From contig JAIORV010000023.1 in assembly GCA_021107945.1 (NCBI GenBank), positions 56,885 to 120,884 of the forward strand: a stretch of 64,000 nt of DNA. The letters are read 5' to 3'. This document shows positions 30,337 to 39,538 of the stretch, in pieces (positions within the stretch are counted from its first letter, which is position 1; each line of letters opens with the position of its first letter). Source of the DNA: Vulcanimicrobiota bacterium. GTDB lineage: Bacteria; Vulcanimicrobiota; JAJTBE01. Both the position numbers and the translations under genes were made by a program. Under the pieces are notes generated by a model. It saw only the letters and a program-made list of their open reading frames with translations, was not told where the DNA came from and ran no database searches.

Positions 30337-31401
30337 ATGAAAAAAACTCGACATTCAATTTCTCTACAGGAGCTGGCCGGAGTGCTGGAAGGCGAGTTGG
30401 CTGGAGAGAATATCGAGATAAATGATGTATCAGGAATTGATGATGTCAAACCGGGTGAAATAACCTGGGTTGAAGGAAAGAAGAGTCTGGAGAATGCACT
30501 GGCATCTTCTGCTTCCGCGCTGGTCATGAATAAGAAGTACTTTAAAAAAGCCGGGGACATGCTGAAAGTGCCATGTATTATTGTTAAAAGACCCAGGCTT
30601 GCTTTTGCGCAAATTTTAAACTGCTTCTATACCAGGTCAAAACCCAATCCGGGAACTGCATCAACCGCTCTCGTCGGACCGAATACTGTATGCGGAGAAA
30701 ATGTCAGTATCGGTGAATATGCAGTTATCGGGAAAGACTGTAACATAGGAGAGGGAACGATTATTTATCCCCTTGTTTATATTGGAGACAATGTAAAAAT
30801 CGGCAAGAATACGATCATTTATCCGTTTGTGGCCATTCACAACAGAACCGAGGTCGGCAAAGAGGTCATAATCCATAGCGGCACTGTTATTGGTGCCGAC
30901 GGGTTCGGCTTTGTAGAGGACAAAAAAACAAGGATCAAAATTCCACAAGTTGGTAAAGTGATGCTGGGGGATTACTCGGAAATCGGAGCAAATGTTACAA
31001 TAGATAGGGCAACAACAGGGATCACAAGTATAGGCGAGGGCACAAAAATTGATAATCTAATCCAGGTCGGTCATAACAACAACATTGGGAAAAACTGTGT
31101 CCTGGTGTCCCAAGTAGGTATTGCAGGCTCCTGCACGATAGGCGATAATGTTACCTTTGCCGCCCAGTCGGGAGTCGGCCCGCATGTAAAAATCGGAGCA
31201 AATACCGTTGTCGCAGGCAGGGGCGGCGTTACACATGACATACCCAAGAATTCGATTGTATCAGGCTTCCCGGCACGTCCACACAGGGAAGCATTACGAA
31301 TAAGCGGCGCAATGCAGCGACTGCCCATTCTCATGAAAACCATCAAAGATCTGGAGCGGAGAATAGAAAAAATGGAGCAGGCGCAAAAATCAAGTGAATA
31401 A
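30337..31401 (+). CDS. lpxD: UDP-3-O-acylglucosamine N-acyltransferase
   Basis: Left-handed beta-helix hexapeptide repeats, GADGFGF, a C-terminal helical tail, and its position after skp. Confidence 0.9.
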
Positions 31402-31498
31402 TAAGTAATATTATGTTATGCTGAAATGTCGGTAGCGAAAACTTCAGCTTTCCAATTCGCAATAATGCGATAAAATGTATTTTCAAGGAGCATTTTTA

Positions 31499-33301
31499 TT
31501 GATTCATAAATTTAAAACATACGGGAGTATAATTTTTTTTAGCATTTTTATTTTATGTCTGACAACTCATTATGCTTTTTCCCAGGAGTCCGGCGAGGTA
31601 TTTATCGGAGGAAAGGTGATTTTTCGTTTCCAGAACGACGGGAAGTCAGATCCCATGGAAAAAGCTTTCAATGTTCAATCACGGATTGACGCGCTCATGG
31701 GATCGTCGCTAAAAGATTCCGATGTCCGCCTTGTAAAAGATGGGAATTTATTCAAAATATTCTGGGGTAAGAATTTTATTACTACCGTGGATCCCGTCCA
31801 GGCGAAATTAAATAATTCAACTGCGGAATCCCTGGCAAAAAGATGGGTCGGCAATTTTAAAAAAGCCGTCAAAAAAGGTGTTTTTTACCTGAAGCCTGAT
31901 CGTATAGAGATGCCGATTTTTTCGCAAATAAAGGTTAAAGCGAGAGGAGTAGCGCAGGGAGAAATAGTTGAAGAATATAATACGGGTAATGTTTCGGTGA
32001 CTATAGATCAAGAAAACGGGGAAATCAGTATAAAAGGCAACGGGCTCGGAAAGAGCAAGATTGTATTCAGGCGTGGCGGTGCAAGGGCTGTGCTTTATAT
32101 CAAGGTTCTGGATATGCCTGCTGACATACCGGATAAAATTGAAACCGAGGTCTCCGGAGATCCCGCCCCTAAGGATATTCTCCAATTTGCCGCCGGTGAT
32201 GCATGTAAACACGCAATAAAGCTTAAACCCGGGGCAAAGATGATAATCGGTAAAAACATCAGAGTGGCAATGACGCTCGACAAAGGCAAAACAGGAGTTG
32301 CACACGTACCGGTATTGATAAAAGGACCCGATTATTTCACCATTAACAGTGAGATCAAGATACTTATTAAAAACATCGGGAACGGCTTCAAAGATAGCAA
32401 GCTCCTAATGGTAAGCGACCGTCCTGAACAATTCAATACCGACGGCATGCTTTTTAAAGGTAAATTTGACAGTGACAATCCCACCAGGCTTTTGTATTAT
32501 CACATGAATTCCGATAAAAAGGAGCGTCGTTTCTGGGTCGAGTTAAAAAATCCCACCAACAAAACTGTAAAGGTCATGATAAGCGGGGCAATGGGAGGTC
32601 CCGACCGCTGGGGCGTGACAGTGGGGCACGAGGCGACAATGAGGTTTCTCAGGGCCTATAACAAGGGTATCGGATATATTGTCCAGATACCTCCGCGTAG
32701 ATCCATCGCACTTGTAGATTTAAGAATGGCAAAGGATCAGGTTTTATGTGGATACTTTCACCTCCGGATCCGTGAGGGAGAAGAATTAGAAGTATATGTA
32801 AAAAATTCAAAAAAAATGGACGGCGTGGCAAACGGCAGGAAACTCCCCCTTCTAACAGAACCTTTCGATCCGTTTAAAATCCACCCCAAGGGTATTTTCA
32901 AGCCTGCGATCCTGGAAGAAGATGTGGAACTTGTGATAGGCAAGGACGACGAGGCGGCTTGTGTTATCGGACAGGCTCCCTGGCTGATTGATCCTGACAC
33001 CGGCGAGCCTAACAACGGTAATTATGGGGTGTTTTACAAGTTTAATCTCAAATTGAAAAATCCCACCGATGAGATCAAACGTATAGGTTTTTTCCTGGTT
33101 CCAAAGGGAGTTCTTGCAAGGGGAAGTTTCATTATTGACGGGCGTGTCATGGAAACGACACTTGTAAGATACCCATCCAGGAGTCTTTTTGCGGCCGTTG
33201 ATGTTGCGCCGAAAAGTGAAAAGATAATTACTATGCTCACAACGCCTGAAGGTGGATCCTATTACCCCGTAGAAGTTATTATCAGAACAATTGAAAGATA
33301 A
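31499..33301 (+). CDS. Secreted hypothetical protein (about 600 aa) embedded in the lipid A operon
   Basis: TTG 31499 lies 8 nt after AAGGAG and gives a signal peptide IHKFKTYGSIIFFSIFILCLTTHYAFS. Contains an Ig-like segment. No family recognised. Confidence 0.7.
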   Translation: MIHKFKTYGSIIFFSIFILCLTTHYAFSQESGEVFIGGKVIFRFQNDGKSDPMEKAFNVQSRIDALMGSSLKDSDVRLVKDGNLFKIFWGKNFITTVDPVQAKLNNSTAESLAKRWVGNFKKAVKKGVFYLKPDRIEMPIFSQIKVKARGVAQGEIVEEYNTGNVSVTIDQENGEISIKGNGLGKSKIVFRRGGARAVLYIKVLDMPADIPDKIETEVSGDPAPKDILQFAAGDACKHAIKLKPGAKMIIGKNIRVAMTLDKGKTGVAHVPVLIKGPDYFTINSEIKILIKNIGNGFKDSKLLMVSDRPEQFNTDGMLFKGKFDSDNPTRLLYYHMNSDKKERRFWVELKNPTNKTVKVMISGAMGGPDRWGVTVGHEATMRFLRAYNKGIGYIVQIPPRRSIALVDLRMAKDQVLCGYFHLRIREGEELEVYVKNSKKMDGVANGRKLPLLTEPFDPFKIHPKGIFKPAILEEDVELVIGKDDEAACVIGQAPWLIDPDTGEPNNGNYGVFYKFNLKLKNPTDEIKRIGFFLVPKGVLARGSFIIDGRVMETTLVRYPSRSLFAAVDVAPKSEKIITMLTTPEGGSYYPVEVIIRTIER

Positions 33302-33339
33302 CTAATTTAAGATAATTATTTGATCAGGAGGAGAGTAAG

Positions 33340-34167
33340 ATCAATAGAAAGCAGAAAACAATTGAGAGGGCATTTTCCCTGGAAGGAGTGGGACTGCATA
33401 CGGGAGAGTTATCCCGCATCAGAGTGGAGCCGAGTTGCATCGATGGGAGAATCGTCTTCCACGGAGAAGGAAAAGACATTCCCGCATTAGTGGAAAATGT
33501 CATCAGTACGAAACGCTGCACCACGCTTGGCAAAGACGGAGTGAAAATTCATACTGTCGAGCATCTTCTCTCTTTATGTTATGCAATGGGAATTGACAAC
33601 CTGAATATATATTTTGAAAGCAATGAGCTTCCCATACTCGACGGGAGTTGCAAAGACCTTGCAATAGCTTTTCAGTCAGCAGGAATAAAAGTACTCGACG
33701 CCTTGAAGAAAGTAATTGCAATTGACAGGGAAATCAGTATTGTCGATGGTGACTCGATTATTACGGGAATGCCGTCGGCTAATTTTTCAATAGGATGTAT
33801 GATCGATTATAATCACCCTGTTGTAGGCGTTCAGACACTCTTTTACAGGGACGATAACGATGATTTTCTTCAGAATTTTGCCCCGGCCAGAACTTTCGGA
33901 TTCTGGGAAGAAATCGAGAAACTTCGCGAGATAGATCTGGCAAGAGGGGGAAGCCTTGATAACGCCCTTGTAATTAAAAAAGACGGCTATATGATGCCGC
34001 CTCGTTTTCCCGATGAGATTGTCAGGCACAAAATTCTCGACATGCTGGGAGATATGTCTCTTTCCGGAGCACAGATCCAGGGGCATATATTTGCAATAAA
34101 GCCCAGCCATAAATTAAATGTTCAATTTGTAAAAGAAATGGTAAGTATTCAGTCCTCCCCCAAATAA
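33340..34167 (+). CDS. lpxC: UDP-3-O-acyl-N-acetylglucosamine deacetylase, with a probable ATC start
   Basis: GVGLHTG and HTVEHLLSLCYAMGIDN..ELPILDGS motifs. No ATG/GTG/TTG lies between the in-frame stop at 33313 and the conserved N-terminus. AGGAGGAG-6 nt-ATC at 33340. Confidence 0.85.
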   Translation: MNRKQKTIERAFSLEGVGLHTGELSRIRVEPSCIDGRIVFHGEGKDIPALVENVISTKRCTTLGKDGVKIHTVEHLLSLCYAMGIDNLNIYFESNELPILDGSCKDLAIAFQSAGIKVLDALKKVIAIDREISIVDGDSIITGMPSANFSIGCMIDYNHPVVGVQTLFYRDDNDDFLQNFAPARTFGFWEEIEKLREIDLARGGSLDNALVIKKDGYMMPPRFPDEIVRHKILDMLGDMSLSGAQIQGHIFAIKPSHKLNVQFVKEMVSIQSSPK

Positions 34168-34339
34168 GAGTGGAATCTTGCATGAAAATCGAGGCTGGAA
34201 GCTTCTCCTGCATTGAGGGGGTTAGATAAATTTAAATATGATGGAATATGTTTAAAGGTAAAAAGCCCGGTTAATAGAATAATTCGTCCCGATACACGGG
34301 ACTTATAACCACCGGAAACATCTGGATCAGGAGGTAAAA

Positions 34340-34780
34340 ATGATACAAATAAGAGAAATTCTGAATATTCTACCCCATCGGTACCCCTTTGTGATGGTAG
34401 ATCGAATCCTCGAAATTGAGGAGGACAAAAGGGCAGTCGGTATAAAAAACGTTACCATCAACGAGCCCTTCTTTCAGGGGCATTTCCCCGGTTTGCCCAC
34501 CATGCCGGGAGTGATGATAGCTGAGTCAATGGCCCAGGTGGGCGGTATAATGTTAATGACATCCAGGAAAGAGGAAAAATTGGTACCTTACCTGGCCGGA
34601 ATTCAAAAACTGCGTTTCAAGAAGCCTGTCTATCCGGGTGACACTCTTTATATTGAAGTAGAATTAATAGGAAAAAAAGGGGGAATGGGCAAGGTCAGTG
34701 GCACCGCCAAGGTGGATGATGAAATTGTTGCGGTGGGTGAAATGTTATTTGCCCTTGTTCCGGAAAGTGAAGTGAAATGA
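34340..34780 (+). CDS. fabZ: 3-hydroxyacyl-ACP dehydratase FabZ
   Basis: LPHRYPFVMVDRI, GHFPG.PTMPGVM and AESMAQ motifs. 146 aa. Confidence 0.95.
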   Translation: MIQIREILNILPHRYPFVMVDRILEIEEDKRAVGIKNVTINEPFFQGHFPGLPTMPGVMIAESMAQVGGIMLMTSRKEEKLVPYLAGIQKLRFKKPVYPGDTLYIEVELIGKKGGMGKVSGTAKVDDEIVAVGEMLFALVPESEVK

Positions 34781-35862
34781 TTCCAATAGCAAAACCGATA
34801 ATAGATTCGGCAGAAAAAAAAAGGGTAATGGAAGTTCTCGATTCAGGAATGCTCTCAATCGGTAAAGTAGTTAAAGAATTCGAGGAAGCATTTGCCAGAT
34901 TCACTGGAGCCAGGTATGCCGTGGCAACGTCTTCCGGTACGACGGCGCTTCATATGGCACTGCTTGCAAGCGGCATCAAGCCCGGAGATAAAGTCCTGAC
35001 AACCCCGTTCTCATTTGTGGCGACGGCAAACTCAATCCTTTATTGCAACGCGGTTCCCGTGTTCTGTGATGTGGAAGAGGGAACATGCAATATTGATCCG
35101 GATCGGATTGAAGAGGCGCTTAAGAATGACGAAGAAATAAAAGCTCTTCTCATTGTCCATCTGTATGGACAACCCTGCAATATGGATAGAATAATGAAGC
35201 TCGTGCAGAAGTATGACCTAATACTGGTGGAAGACGCCGCCCAGGCGCATGGAGCGCTCTACAAGGGAAAGCATGGGGGCACATTCGGAAATGCCGGTGC
35301 ATTCAGCTTTTATCCGACCAAGAATATGACCACTGCAGAGGGCGGAATGATAATCACCGATGATGAAAAAGTCCATCAGGATCTGAAGCTTCTCAGGGAG
35401 CATGGCGGTGCGGGCGATTATGACCATATAATGTTAGGTTACAATTATCGAATGACGAATATTGAGGCGGCTATTGGATTGGTACAACTGGAAAAACTGA
35501 CAGGCTTCAACAACAGGAGACGTGAAAACGCCGCATATTATGACTCCCATCTATCCAATCTTGACTGGCTGGAGATTTTAGAAAAACAAACCGACTGTCT
35601 TCACTGTTATCATCAATATACTATCCGTGTAAAAAAGGACAGGGACAGGTTTGTGGAGTACCTTAAAGAAAACGGCATAGGATGTAAAGTCTATTATCCC
35701 CATACAATACCTTCTCTACCGTTATACAAGGAGAAAGGTTATAACGGCCTGCCCTTTCCCGTGTCCGGGAAGCTCTGTGACGAGGTGGTGTCCATACCGG
35801 TACACCCTTCAGTTTCCGATGAGGACAGGGAGAAAATCGTAAAGGTAATAAAAGACTGGTAA
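34777..35862 (+). CDS. DegT/DnrJ/EryC1/StrS-family PLP sugar aminotransferase (GnnB/ArnB-like)
   Basis: Family pattern (ATSSGTTALHMAL, VEDAAQAHGA, SFYPTKNMTTAEGG). 4-nt ATGA overlap with fabZ. Confidence 0.85.
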   Translation: MIPIAKPIIDSAEKKRVMEVLDSGMLSIGKVVKEFEEAFARFTGARYAVATSSGTTALHMALLASGIKPGDKVLTTPFSFVATANSILYCNAVPVFCDVEEGTCNIDPDRIEEALKNDEEIKALLIVHLYGQPCNMDRIMKLVQKYDLILVEDAAQAHGALYKGKHGGTFGNAGAFSFYPTKNMTTAEGGMIITDDEKVHQDLKLLREHGGAGDYDHIMLGYNYRMTNIEAAIGLVQLEKLTGFNNRRRENAAYYDSHLSNLDWLEILEKQTDCLHCYHQYTIRVKKDRDRFVEYLKENGIGCKVYYPHTIPSLPLYKEKGYNGLPFPVSGKLCDEVVSIPVHPSVSDEDREKIVKVIKDW

Positions 35863-36052
35863 TTATTCAACCTCCTGAAATACTTCTCATTCTATCAGGA
35901 GGAATTTAAAATAAACCGCAAATCTACAATAAATAGAAACGGGAATCGGGAAATGAGAAACGGGATCCGGTCACAATCCGGCCTGCATTCTCCATTCTCT
36001 GACATCTGATGTTGTAGATTATTACAAGACGACCAAGGAAGGAGAGATTCCT

Positions 36053-36847
36053 ATTTCCAGGATACATCCAACAGCAATTATCGAGGATGGTGCCAGGATA
36101 GCAGAAGATGTGGAAATCGGCCCTTTTACTATAATCGGTAAGAATGTAATAATAGGAAAGGGAACAAAAATACATTCTTCCGTACTTATAAACGGCTGGA
36201 CAACCATCGGTGAAGACAATGAGATATATAAGGGAACCGTCATAGGTGAAGAACCCCAGGATATGAAATACAAAGGCGAGAAGAGTTATGTCATAATCGG
36301 CGACAGGAATAGTTTCAGGGAGTATGTAACAATCCATCGCGCCGCTGACGCTGGTGGGGCCACGATAATCGGAGATGAAAACCTGCTGATGAATTATATT
36401 CACGTGGCTCATAACTGTGTTCTGGGAAACCAAATTGTAATAGCCAATATGGTGGGGTTTGCCGGACATGTCACAATTGAAGATCAGGTGGTTTTCGGTG
36501 GATTGAGTGGGATACACCAGTTCGTCCGCATTGGCAAAATGGCAATGATTGCGGGATATTCAAAGGTTCTTCAGGATATACCCCCGTTTTCTCTTGTGGA
36601 GGGACAGCCCGCCCGAATATTGGGTTTGAATATTCCCGGTCTAAGGCGAAGAAAAGTGCAACCCGATTCGAGAAATGCTCTGAAAAAAGCGATAAACATC
36701 ATAAAAAGCAGGAAATTTAAACGCACAGATGCCCTTGAAGTGATAAGGAAAGAAGTTGATATCACACCGGAAGTTGAGCATCTTCTTCAATTCATGTCCA
36801 ATCCCTCAAAACAGGGAATACTAATGCAATCGGCCAAGAGAAGCTAG
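36053..36847 (+). CDS. lpxA: Acyl-ACP--UDP-GlcNAc O-acyltransferase, with a probable ATT start
   Basis: N-terminus (M)SRIHPTAIIEDGARI, hexapeptide repeats and a C-terminal LpxA helical domain. No canonical start lies between the in-frame stop at 35954 and the conserved IHPTAI. GGAGAG-6 nt-ATT at 36053. Confidence 0.85.
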   Translation: MSRIHPTAIIEDGARIAEDVEIGPFTIIGKNVIIGKGTKIHSSVLINGWTTIGEDNEIYKGTVIGEEPQDMKYKGEKSYVIIGDRNSFREYVTIHRAADAGGATIIGDENLLMNYIHVAHNCVLGNQIVIANMVGFAGHVTIEDQVVFGGLSGIHQFVRIGKMAMIAGYSKVLQDIPPFSLVEGQPARILGLNIPGLRRRKVQPDSRNALKKAINIIKSRKFKRTDALEVIRKEVDITPEVEHLLQFMSNPSKQGILMQSAKRS

Positions 36848-37280
36848 GGGAGGGCGGATGTGAGGGTATCAAATTGTCAGCCAAGAATGCTGACACTCCA
36901 CCCATCACGTAGCGCGGGTTTTTAAACCCGCCAAAACGAGGAGGTCTGAAGACCTCTGTTATAAAAAATCTCTCCTTCAAATGATATAGAGAGAGGAAGT
37001 CTCGATAAAGAAAGAAGATTATTTTGAAGTAGATCTCCGGAGTAGAGATCCTTCACTGTGAAAGACTTCGGAAGTAAGCAATACCCGCTCTTGCCAGGGT
37101 TTATCCAGTAAATTAAAAGATCGTATTCCGCTCAGGATGACACGCCGGGGGATCGTCTTTGATGAGGTCCTTCGTAGTGTAATACATATTCCCGTCCCTA
37201 CCGGGGCTTATCCGGTAACCACAAGGATCATCTTTCGCCAATGTTCTGCTTAACAGTCCCATAACGGCTGAATCAGGAGT

Positions 37281-37344
37281 AATAAAAATGCAGATTCCAT
37301 CGAGCTTTATAAGTTTGATGAAATCTGCATTTTAAGGTTTTTTA
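37281..37344. terminator. Bidirectional stem-loop terminator between the lpx operon and hppA
   Basis: 11-bp stem AAATGCAGATT/AATCTGCATTT (37286-37296 and 37322-37332). T-runs follow on both strands. Confidence 0.6.
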
Positions 37345-37456
37345 AGATGGATGTTGGGGACAGACTTTTTTAAAAAGTTTCTTCCCCAAATGTTCTTTTA
37401 TTACTACAGATAAAACTCCGCGCCCTCCGCGCTCTCTGCGTTGAAAAATCAAAAAT

Positions 37457-39538
37457 CTATTTCAAAAATATCCAGTCAATAAGCGACATTGTCATTCCTG
37501 CAAATACAGGCGCAAACACGAGAGAGACAACTGTCATCAACTTGATGAGGATATTCATCGACGGTCCTGATGTGTCTTTGAAGGGGTCACCCACCGTGTC
37601 TCCGACAACTGCCGCCTTGTGAGCGAGGGATCCTTTGCCGCCTAAGTTTCCTTCCTCGATCCATTTTTTTGCGTTGTCCCATATCGCCCCGGTATTCGAC
37701 ATAAATATTCCCAGAAGGACTCCTGTTACAACTGCGCCTGCAAGGAATCCGCCAAGAGCTTCCTTTCCAAGAACAAAACCGATTAACAGCGGGGAGATAA
37801 CCGCCAGAACTCCGGGTATGATCATCTCTCTTAATGAACCGTCTGTTGCAATAGAAATACATTTATCCACATCGGGTTCAGCTTTGCCTTCCATCAAACC
37901 CTTTATTTCTTTAAACTGCCTTCTGATCTCTTTCACAAGTAAATTTGCCGCTTTTCCCACAGCTTCCATTGTCAGTGCGGCAATTATGAAGGGCATAAGT
38001 CCGCCCAGCAAGAGTCCGACAATTGTATTCACATTTGTCAGGTCAATTCTGTCAACGTGTGCCGCTTTTTGATAAGCTGAGAAAAGTGCAAGTGCCGTTA
38101 TTGCGGCGGATCCGATGGCGAATCCCTTTCCGATGGCGGCTGTTGTATTGCCGAGAGAGTCCAGTTTGTCTGTAATCTTTCGGATTTCCGGTCCCGCGCC
38201 GCTCATTTCCGCTATACCTCCGGCGTTATCCGCAATTGGCCCGTAACTGTCGGTTGTCATTACAACTCCTACGGTTGCAAGCATTCCGACACCGGCAAGA
38301 GCAATAGCATAAAGCCCACCGAGACCCGGGTCAACATTAGGTTGTACAGATCCAAGGGAATATGCCACATAAATCGCCACACAAAGTGCAAGAAGGGGTA
38401 AAATGCAACTCTTGAAACCCACGGCCATACCACCGATAATGGTAGTGGCGGGTCCTGACTCACATTGCTTTGCCACTTCCTTAACCGGCGGACCCGAGGT
38501 AAAGTATTCACTGAAGATCCCTATCAATACCCCGCATATCATTCCGGCAAGAATAGCCCAGAACATATGGAGTGATCCTATCATATACCATGTAAGGATT
38601 CCGGCTCCTATCAGGAAGAGAATTCCAGCGATGTATGTGGAATTTCTCAGCGCTGATTGAGGATCCATTTTCTTTAAAATATGCATCGAGTTGATACCGA
38701 TGAAGGAGCATATAAGCCCAATGGTTATAAGAAGAATTGGGAATGAAATCCATTTCAACTGCCCCTGTACCGTATTTGCCATGATTGCTCCTATGGCAAT
38801 TGCGGCGACGACCGATCCCACATATGACTCGAACAGGTCTGCGCCCATTCCGGCAGTATCGCCCACATTATCACCCACATTATCAGCGATGACACCAGGA
38901 TTCCGTGGGTCGTCCTCGGGAATACCCGCTTCGATCTTACCCACAAGATCGGCTCCGACGTCCGCACTCTTGGTGTATATGCCGCCTCCAACTCTTGCGA
39001 ATAGAGCTATGCTGGATGCACCCATCGCAAATCCGCTGATAATCATCGGTGCCGTTGTGGGATTACCCCTGGTGAAATAAAAAAGGACTCCGAGTCCCAC
39101 AACACCAAGCGAGGCAACTAGAATTCCCATAACCGATCCGCCAAGAAATGCTACCGAGAGAGCGGCCGGTGTTCCACCGTCTTTTGCCGCTTGGCAAGTT
39201 CTCACATTTGCCTTGGTGGCCGCTTCCATGCCGAGCCATCCCGCGCCCATCGAGCAAAGAGCGCCAAAAAGATAGGCTAAACCTGTCCACCAACCTATAG
39301 CCTCATTATTTGGTCCCTTGATAAGAAGACCCAATGCCAGGAATACTATTACCATAAAAATAGCAATAATCGAGTATTCCTTCCTGAGAAATACCATTGC
39401 CCCCAGGTGGATCTTGTCGGCTATATCTTGCATTTTCTTATTTCCCGGCGAGTATTTACGAACGGAAAAATAGGTCAAAACTGCAAAAAGGATACCTGCA
39501 ATCCCTATCCAGGGAGTGTAAATCGTCCATGCTGACAT
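37457..39538 (-). CDS. hppA: Membrane-bound proton/sodium-translocating pyrophosphatase
   Basis: [36 protein letters not shown] and [12 protein letters not shown] motifs. The start is ATG 39538 (MSAWTIY) with GGAGG upstream. Confidence 0.95.

Follow-up and report, generated by a model that had tools for sequence, protein, structure and literature searches.

Probable near-cognate start codons of the lipid A genes lpxC and lpxA in a Vulcanimicrobiota bacterium

The stretch of DNA analyzed here (64,000 nucleotides; hereafter the window) comes from the genome assembly of a Vulcanimicrobiota bacterium (GCA_021107945.1, contig JAIORV010000023.1, positions 56,885 to 120,884 of the forward strand) and carries a cluster of lipid A genes. 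It was found that two of them, lpxC and lpxA, have no ATG, GTG, or TTG codon in front of the sequence that encodes their conserved N-terminus. Each frame instead has a Shine-Dalgarno (SD) sequence followed by a near-cognate codon, AUC at position 33340 of the window for lpxC and AUU at position 36053 for lpxA. Comparison with related sequences makes it very likely that these two codons are the true starts and that both genes are intact. The anatomy of the start sites, their conservation, the coding boundary, and the rarity of such starts in the genome were observed directly. ATT and ATC are together referred to as ATY below.

Start sites of lpxC and lpxA

The features of both loci are listed in Table 1. 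The lpxC frame, which opens after the TAA at 33313, translates as LFDQEESKINRKQKTIERAFSLEGVGLHTG. Direct reading and the list of open reading frames (ORFs) show that GTG 33388 is the sole in-frame ATG, GTG, or TTG codon of the 5′ region. The spacer between the GGAG core of the SD sequence and ATC 33340 is 6 nt, while two further in-frame near-cognate codons, ATT 33361 and CTG 33379, have no SD. LpxC matches the TIGR00325 profile over its full length with 251.4 bits (cut-off 187.25), residues 4-269 corresponding to profile positions 2-273. A frameshift from an upstream start in another frame was also considered and found to be unsupported; TTG 33320, on the 5′ side of the lpxC SD, is not in the lpxC frame.

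In the lpxA frame, no ATG, GTG, or TTG precedes GTG 36110. Besides ATT 36053, there is an alternative ATT at 36047, and an in-frame ATA at 36062 lies 17 nt beyond the GGAG core. LpxA (NF003657 / TIGR01852) scores 346.6 bits against NF003657 (cut-off 226), and its residues 2-259 correspond to profile positions 4-261, again a full-length match. For both proteins, the family profile thus opens at the proposed start. The original prediction had stated that neither gene has a canonical start before its conserved N-terminus, and the positions it gave for the stop codon, the SD, and the ATY codon of each gene and for GTG 33388 and GTG 36110 are exact. Its proposal that translation starts at ATC 33340 and ATT 36053 is strongly supported by the SD geometry, the profile coverage, the conservation, and the substitution pattern described below.

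Conservation of the start sites among relatives

Is the near-cognate start of lpxA common in related bacteria? The class was sampled through its species representatives, of which there are only four (G000, the source genome, to G003), and through three metagenome lineages (L185, L186, and L187). In a tree of LpxA sequences, these seven lineages form one clade with 100/100 support. Their LpxA sequences are 67-87% identical, and those of L185, L186, and L187 are 87%, 76%, and 72% identical to that of the window. In all seven lineages, ATT or ATC comes after an SD sequence (GGAAGGAG-type; GGAAGGGG in L187), and none of them has a canonical start that could be used. The third base of the start codon alternates between T and C across the class and the codon is never ATG, while the neighboring codons vary freely. 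As a separate observation, G001 clusters within Eremiobacterota (Vulcanimicrobiota), while one NCBI record labels it Firmicutes/Bacillota.

Eleven lineages whose lpxA has no canonical start were compared by anchoring the start on the I of the IHPTA motif. A near-cognate codon lies at codon −3 in ten of them; the exception is G001, which has ATT at −2. The codon at −3 is ATT in G000, L185, L186, G003, G002, G034, and G005, ATC in L187 and G008, and CTG in G053. An lpxA without a canonical start is also found in at least four other families of the phylum (G008, G034, and G005 with ATY, and G053 with CTG). Further members of the phylum begin lpxA with GTG, as in many families, or with ATG or TTG. 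In a survey, 80 lpxA loci were fetched, 78 of them from outside the class; the in-class pair, L062 and L063, corresponds to G001 and G003. A canonical in-frame codon just before IHP is present in 79 of the 80 loci, the exception being L062. In L063, the sole canonical codon is a TTG that runs into the SD from the upstream side. Among these 80 loci, the near-cognate arrangement is confined to the class.

The original prediction called for an alignment of orthologues as a test of whether the ATY codon and its SD are conserved. For lpxA the arrangement proved to be kept in seven of seven class lineages and in four other families. The lpxA ATY start is clade-specific, old, and stable, and its retention throughout the class and beyond suggests that weak initiation has been selected for or, at the least, tolerated over a long time.

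Two side observations concern the CTG lineage. The lpxA gene of L154 (G053:C5, family f18), and also those of L149, L150, and L152, have CTG at codon −3 after GAGGAG. The G053 gene has no canonical start at all, and its public call P0059 (256 aa) appears truncated.

For lpxC, the same alignment bore out the expected conservation in part. An SD followed after 6 nt by ATY precedes lpxC in four of the seven class lineages: G000 with ATC, L185 with ATC and a conserved SD, L186 with GGAGGA, 6 nt, and ATT, and G002 with AAGGAGGGG, 6 nt, and ATT. In L185, there is an additional TTG upstream of the SD, which was chosen by the gene caller. In the other three lineages (L187, G001, and G003), lpxC starts with ATG. 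Mapped on the LpxA tree, this distribution calls for a minimum of two or three switches; the ATY start of lpxC thus recurs but is labile, and the lpxC and lpxA starts are not locked together.

Could the weak starts be real but neutral? If little LpxA and LpxC is needed, drift to ATY would be tolerated and the codons would have no regulatory role. The alternation of lpxC between ATG and ATY among close lineages fits this explanation, as does the range of lpxA starts across the families of the phylum, which includes ATG, GTG, TTG, CTG, and ATY. On the other hand, in seven deeply diverged lineages of the class the lpxA start varies between T and C and is never ATG, which is one base away, and the lpxA SD is likewise kept. 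Because the sample is small and phylogenetically non-independent, this argument against neutrality is moderate and not decisive, and neutral drift is held to be a possible, though not the favored, account.

Translational coupling seems unlikely. In that case, the ATY codons would be used mainly by re-initiating ribosomes, and the weak codon would hold output in constant proportion to the upstream protein instead of acting as a throttle sensitive to initiation factor 3 (IF3). The lpxC ATC is only 38 nt past the stop codon (33299-33301) of a same-strand 608-aa gene, and the lpxA ATT of L185 is about 35 nt past the aminotransferase gene. However, 190 nt separate the end of the aminotransferase gene from ATT 36053 in this genome, and the gap is about 250-350 nt in L186 and L187. 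With an upstream gap that varies among relatives between about 35 and 350 nt, lpxA cannot have coupling as its conserved mechanism. Moreover, each gene has a strong, ideally spaced SD of its own, which is what fresh initiation would predict. Coupling could still contribute at lpxC.

Coding boundary and public annotation

If ATC 33340 and ATT 36053 are the starts, the codons between them and the first GTG should evolve as coding sequence. In the 19 codons from ATT 36053 to GTG 36110 of lpxA, there are 2 synonymous and 0 nonsynonymous differences from L185, and 6 synonymous and 4 nonsynonymous differences from L186. In the 16 codons from ATC 33340 to GTG 33388 of lpxC, there are 2 synonymous and 5 nonsynonymous differences from L185, and 8 synonymous and 4 nonsynonymous differences from L186. 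In contrast to the lpxA codons, the 57 nt located 5′ of the lpxA ATT are identical at 26-32 of 57 positions in L185 and L186, and both of these have in-frame stop codons there. The substitution pattern and the upstream stop codons place the coding boundary at the SD and the ATY codon, not at the downstream GTG. Coding-type conservation begins at the proposed start clearly for lpxA, while the comparisons are mixed for lpxC.

It is very improbable that translation begins at GTG 33388 and GTG 36110 and yields shortened yet functional products of 259 aa for LpxC and 245 aa for LpxA. These are the first canonical in-frame codons, and the public gene calls begin at them. However, GTG 33388 lies inside GVGLHTG, and a start there would lose about 16 residues that are matched by TIGR00325; a start at GTG 36110 would lose 19 residues that include IHPTAII and are matched by NF003657. 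Neither GTG is preceded by a well-spaced SD. The lpxA codons that would be lost are conserved with mostly synonymous changes, while those of lpxC are less clear. In addition, the position of the first canonical codon shifts among relatives, which is a sign of misplaced starts. The public LpxA entries for the class (P0001-P0013) range from 244 to 285 aa; this scatter arises because start finders ignore ATT and ATC and pick differing canonical codons. The public calls of 245 aa for LpxA and 259 aa for LpxC are truncated by 16-19 residues. Such truncated entries affect structure models, pangenome clustering, and pathway-completeness calls for Eremiobacterota.

Three independent samples (ENA ERZ26872897, Logan SRR15668619, and Logan SRR32473240) have exactly the same lpxA start region as the window. 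Across the lpxC start region, the two Logan data sets also match it exactly, while the stretch fetched from ENA ERZ26872897 begins inside lpxC. The contigs of all three carry the 245-aa LpxA call P0001. Since independent assemblies are identical, a base-call or assembly artefact is excluded for practical purposes. Thus, although the source genome is a metagenome-type assembly of 215 contigs, a sequencing or assembly error, or the decay of pseudogenes that have lost their start codons, is effectively refuted by the shared sequence, by the near-cognate state kept in other species, by intact lpxC and lpxA frames that score far above the family cut-offs, and by N-terminal codons that evolve under purifying selection.

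Genome-wide rarity of ATY starts and the translation apparatus

The genome initiates translation in an SD-led manner, with an optimum for GGAG at 5-12 nt before ATG and a peak at 8 nt. The spacers of lpxC (6 nt) and lpxA (8 nt) are within this optimum, and the SD match length of 6 in both genes belongs to the top 27% of the ATG-led genes. Among SD-supported starts, ATG accounts for 72%, TTG for 17.5%, and GTG for 10.5%. ATY starts were screened by the SD core only, in 5′ extensions of 8 codons or more ahead of the first canonical start. Depending on the definition of the SD, about 8-18 sites with an SD-preceded ATY were found above background (Fisher p = 0.004-0.05). This tally replaced a first whole-genome SD-anchored tally, which was too noisy since GGAGG is common inside genes. 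A ranking of the ATY candidates by codon usage was dominated by shadow ORFs and was kept only as a list. Most of the 10 strong ATY candidates were rejected, since a canonical start a few codons downstream fits the N-terminus of the family (for example, MKYAYYPGC, MNICVLTKQ, and MKILLIE). ATY starts are rare in this genome, and two of the clear cases share one lipid A cluster.

Only one inspected candidate still stands apart from these. On the minus strand of G000 contig C9 (16207 in reverse-strand coordinates), the gene for an HflX-like GTPase of 403 aa has AAGGAG, 10 nt, and ATT, and this ATT precedes the first canonical start by 20 codons. The gene may be another that starts at ATT.

The translation apparatus appears ordinary. 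In the four class genomes, infC, the gene for IF3, carries a conserved CAT-ATA start with an SD-like GGTGGTG or GAGGAGG in front of it, and infC of G001 has no canonical alternative to ATA. Such a start is the classical mark of autoregulation by IF3 (PMC2830850). The initiator tRNA is canonical: it differs very little from its E. coli counterpart and has C1 as well as the three G-C pairs of the anticodon stem.

RNA structure or a known RNA family is not involved at the lpxC and lpxA starts. An Rfam scan of positions 31000-38000 returned nothing relevant, and no significant structure was predicted for the two initiation regions (folding z-scores of −0.45 and −1.38). A promoter and terminator scan was uninformative about these regions.

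A possible throttle on lipid A synthesis

In E. coli reporters, initiation at AUU, AUC, AUA, or CUG reaches about 1-2% of that at AUG, and the only confirmed AUU starts of E. coli are those of infC and pcnB (10.1101/063800). IF3 discriminates against such near-cognate starts (PMC2830850; PMC9723500). By analogy, the 30S subunit would dock on the strong SD and set AUC 33340 or AUU 36053 in the P site. The formylmethionyl (fMet) initiator tRNA would then pair with AUY by two of the three anticodon bases, and IF3 would reject such complexes and lower the yield. Pairing at two of three bases together with IF3 rejection would make initiation far weaker than at AUG, with an increase under shortage of IF3. 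In this way, the level of LpxA, and in this species and some lineages also that of LpxC, would probably be kept low and made to follow the state of the translation apparatus, together with the AUA-started infC. I infer fMet initiation at the ATY codons, the low output, the IF3 dependence, and any adaptive value from this scheme; the IF3 dependence and the low output are carried over from work in E. coli (10.1101/063800; PMC2830850).

The original prediction saw in the two starts a possible built-in throttle on two steps of lipid A synthesis. This proposal is partly supported: the part concerning lpxA gains from the class-wide retention of its near-cognate start, while the lpxC start is labile and the genes are not locked together. 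An adaptive throttle by ATY starts is plausible for lpxA, and the case is weaker for lpxC. A bolder scheme can be offered only tentatively: lpxA (always) and lpxC (in some lineages) might form, with infC, a small AUN-initiated set governed by the ratio of IF3 to ribosomes. The supply of lipid A would then be coupled to the translation state, replacing or supplementing the proteolytic control of LpxC, and the near-cognate start at lpxA codon −3 (ATT, ATC, or CTG) would be ancient and selectively maintained in part of the phylum.

Several points weigh against this reading of the ATY codons as weak, IF3-sensitive starts. The ATG start of lpxC in three of the seven class lineages means that a weak lpxC start is not required. 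AUU output is strongly context-dependent, and a strong SD could make the start less limiting than the figure of 1-2% suggests. ATT 36047, although too near the GGAG core, is a less likely candidate for the codon actually used for lpxA. The 3′ end of the 16S rRNA was not found in the assembly, so that the anti-SD sequence was assumed to be canonical. Finally, the ATY screen is crude and may have missed some ATY-started genes, which bears on the rarity of such starts.

Comparison with known systems

The lpxA and lpxC starts are the same kind of feature as those of infC and pcnB in E. coli, dnaA and rpsL in Deinococcus, and ebpA in Enterococcus faecalis. The E. coli infC and pcnB genes likewise have a near-cognate AUU-type start after an SD, and their output is low and IF3-dependent (10.1101/063800; PMC2830850). 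However, infC is autoregulatory and its product is itself the discriminator, while lpxA and lpxC would be passive clients. In Deinococcus, the starts of dnaA (ATC) and rpsL (CTG) were proven by labelled N-terminal peptides, and it was proposed that the dnaA start links a core process to the translation status (PMC2830850). The likeness to dnaA is close: an essential housekeeping gene with a lineage-conserved non-canonical start that was earlier mis-annotated. The Deinococcus starts are peptide-proven, while those of lpxA and lpxC are known by comparison, and the pathway (lipid A) and the phylum are different. In E. faecalis, a rare ATT upstream of the annotated ATG of ebpA lowers protein output (PMC4447247). 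That case was tested by mutation and concerns a pilus gene of a Gram-positive pathogen, without deep conservation like that of lpxA here.

Weak starts in the lpxD-fabZ-lpxA operon are not confined to Eremiobacterota, since the annotation of E. coli K-12 (L193, NC_000913.3, positions 202101 and 202560) gives TTG for fabZ and GTG for lpxA. The gene context is the same, the starts are weaker than ATG, and many lpxA genes of Eremiobacterota also start with GTG. On the other hand, GTG and TTG are canonical codons with about 10-100% of the output of ATG in reporters, while ATT and ATC, at about 1-2%, are one step lower (10.1101/063800).

Lipid A synthesis in E. coli is held in check at another level. 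The amount of LpxC is limited there through turnover controlled by FtsH and LapB. Both controls would presumably serve to restrain the committed step of the pathway, but in E. coli the means is post-translational proteolysis rather than initiation as proposed here. The zinc ribbon of LapB (PF18073, a 28-position model) also matches Gram-positive control genomes; thus, these matches are uninformative on the presence of LapB.

Literature searches found no paper reporting ATT or ATC (AUU) starts for lpxA or lpxC. A class-wide near-cognate start on the first enzyme of lipid A synthesis would be among the few deep comparative cases for an essential gene outside translation, the best-known comparable conserved non-canonical start being that of Deinococcus dnaA. 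In bacteria for which no circuit of LpxC proteolysis is known, the flux into lipid A might be limited in this way.

Gene order of the locus

From position 30337 to 36847, the ORF list and NCBIfam matches give the order lpxD, a 608-aa gene, lpxC, fabZ, an aminotransferase gene, and lpxA, all on the plus strand.

Table 1. Positions of the genes and start-site elements in the window, with infC for comparison
Feature	Position	Strand	Remarks
Window	contig C2:56885-120884		source assembly G000: 5.56 Mb, 215 contigs, metagenome-type, 42% G+C
lpxD	30337..31401	+	ATG start; ORF list and NCBIfam
608-aa gene between lpxD and lpxC	31475-33301 (stop 33299-33301)	+	ORF list
In-frame TAA opening the lpxC frame	33313..33315	+	direct reading
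lpxC SD, AGGAGGAG	33326..33333	+	6-nt contiguous match to the canonical anti-SD
Proposed lpxC start, ATC	33340..33342	+	6 nt 3′ of the SD; TIGR00325 coverage; orthologues
lpxC coding sequence, UDP-3-O-acyl-GlcNAc deacetylase	33340..34167 (with stop)	+	275 aa; TIGR00325
First canonical lpxC codon, GTG	33388..33390	+	within GVGLHTG; start of gene callers, giving 259 aa
fabZ	34340..34780	+	ATG start; ORF list and NCBIfam
DegT/PseC-like sugar aminotransferase	34777..35862	+	ATG start; between fabZ and lpxA
In-frame TGA opening the lpxA frame	35954..35956	+	direct reading
lpxA SD region, AAGGAAGGAGAG	36035..36046	+	core GGAAGGAG in six of seven class lineages; GGAAGGGG in L187
Alternative in-frame ATT (codon −5)	36047..36049	+	2 nt 3′ of the GGAG core; missing in G003 and L187
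Proposed lpxA start, ATT (codon −3 from IHPTA)	36053..36055	+	6 nt after the SD region, 8 nt after the GGAG core
lpxA coding sequence, acyl-ACP--UDP-GlcNAc O-acyltransferase	36053..36847 (with stop)	+	264 aa; NF003657
First canonical lpxA codon, GTG	36110..36112	+	start of gene callers, giving 245 aa (P0001)
infC	G000 contig C77:9806-10312		outside the window; L192, also L189-L191

The protein of the 608-aa gene has no NCBIfam match. Counterparts of 600-625 aa, without a Pfam match, are present at the same position in L183-L187. The gap before lpxA contains an ORF of 18 codons from ATG 35953 to TGA 36009, followed by ATG-TTG-TAG. This ORF was considered and dropped, as the gap is about 35 nt in L185 and its length is not kept; the ORF is probably due to chance. 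The DegT/PseC-like aminotransferase gene is kept in L185-L187, and it is possible that its product catalyzes a GnnB-type step toward GlcN3N-based lipid A.

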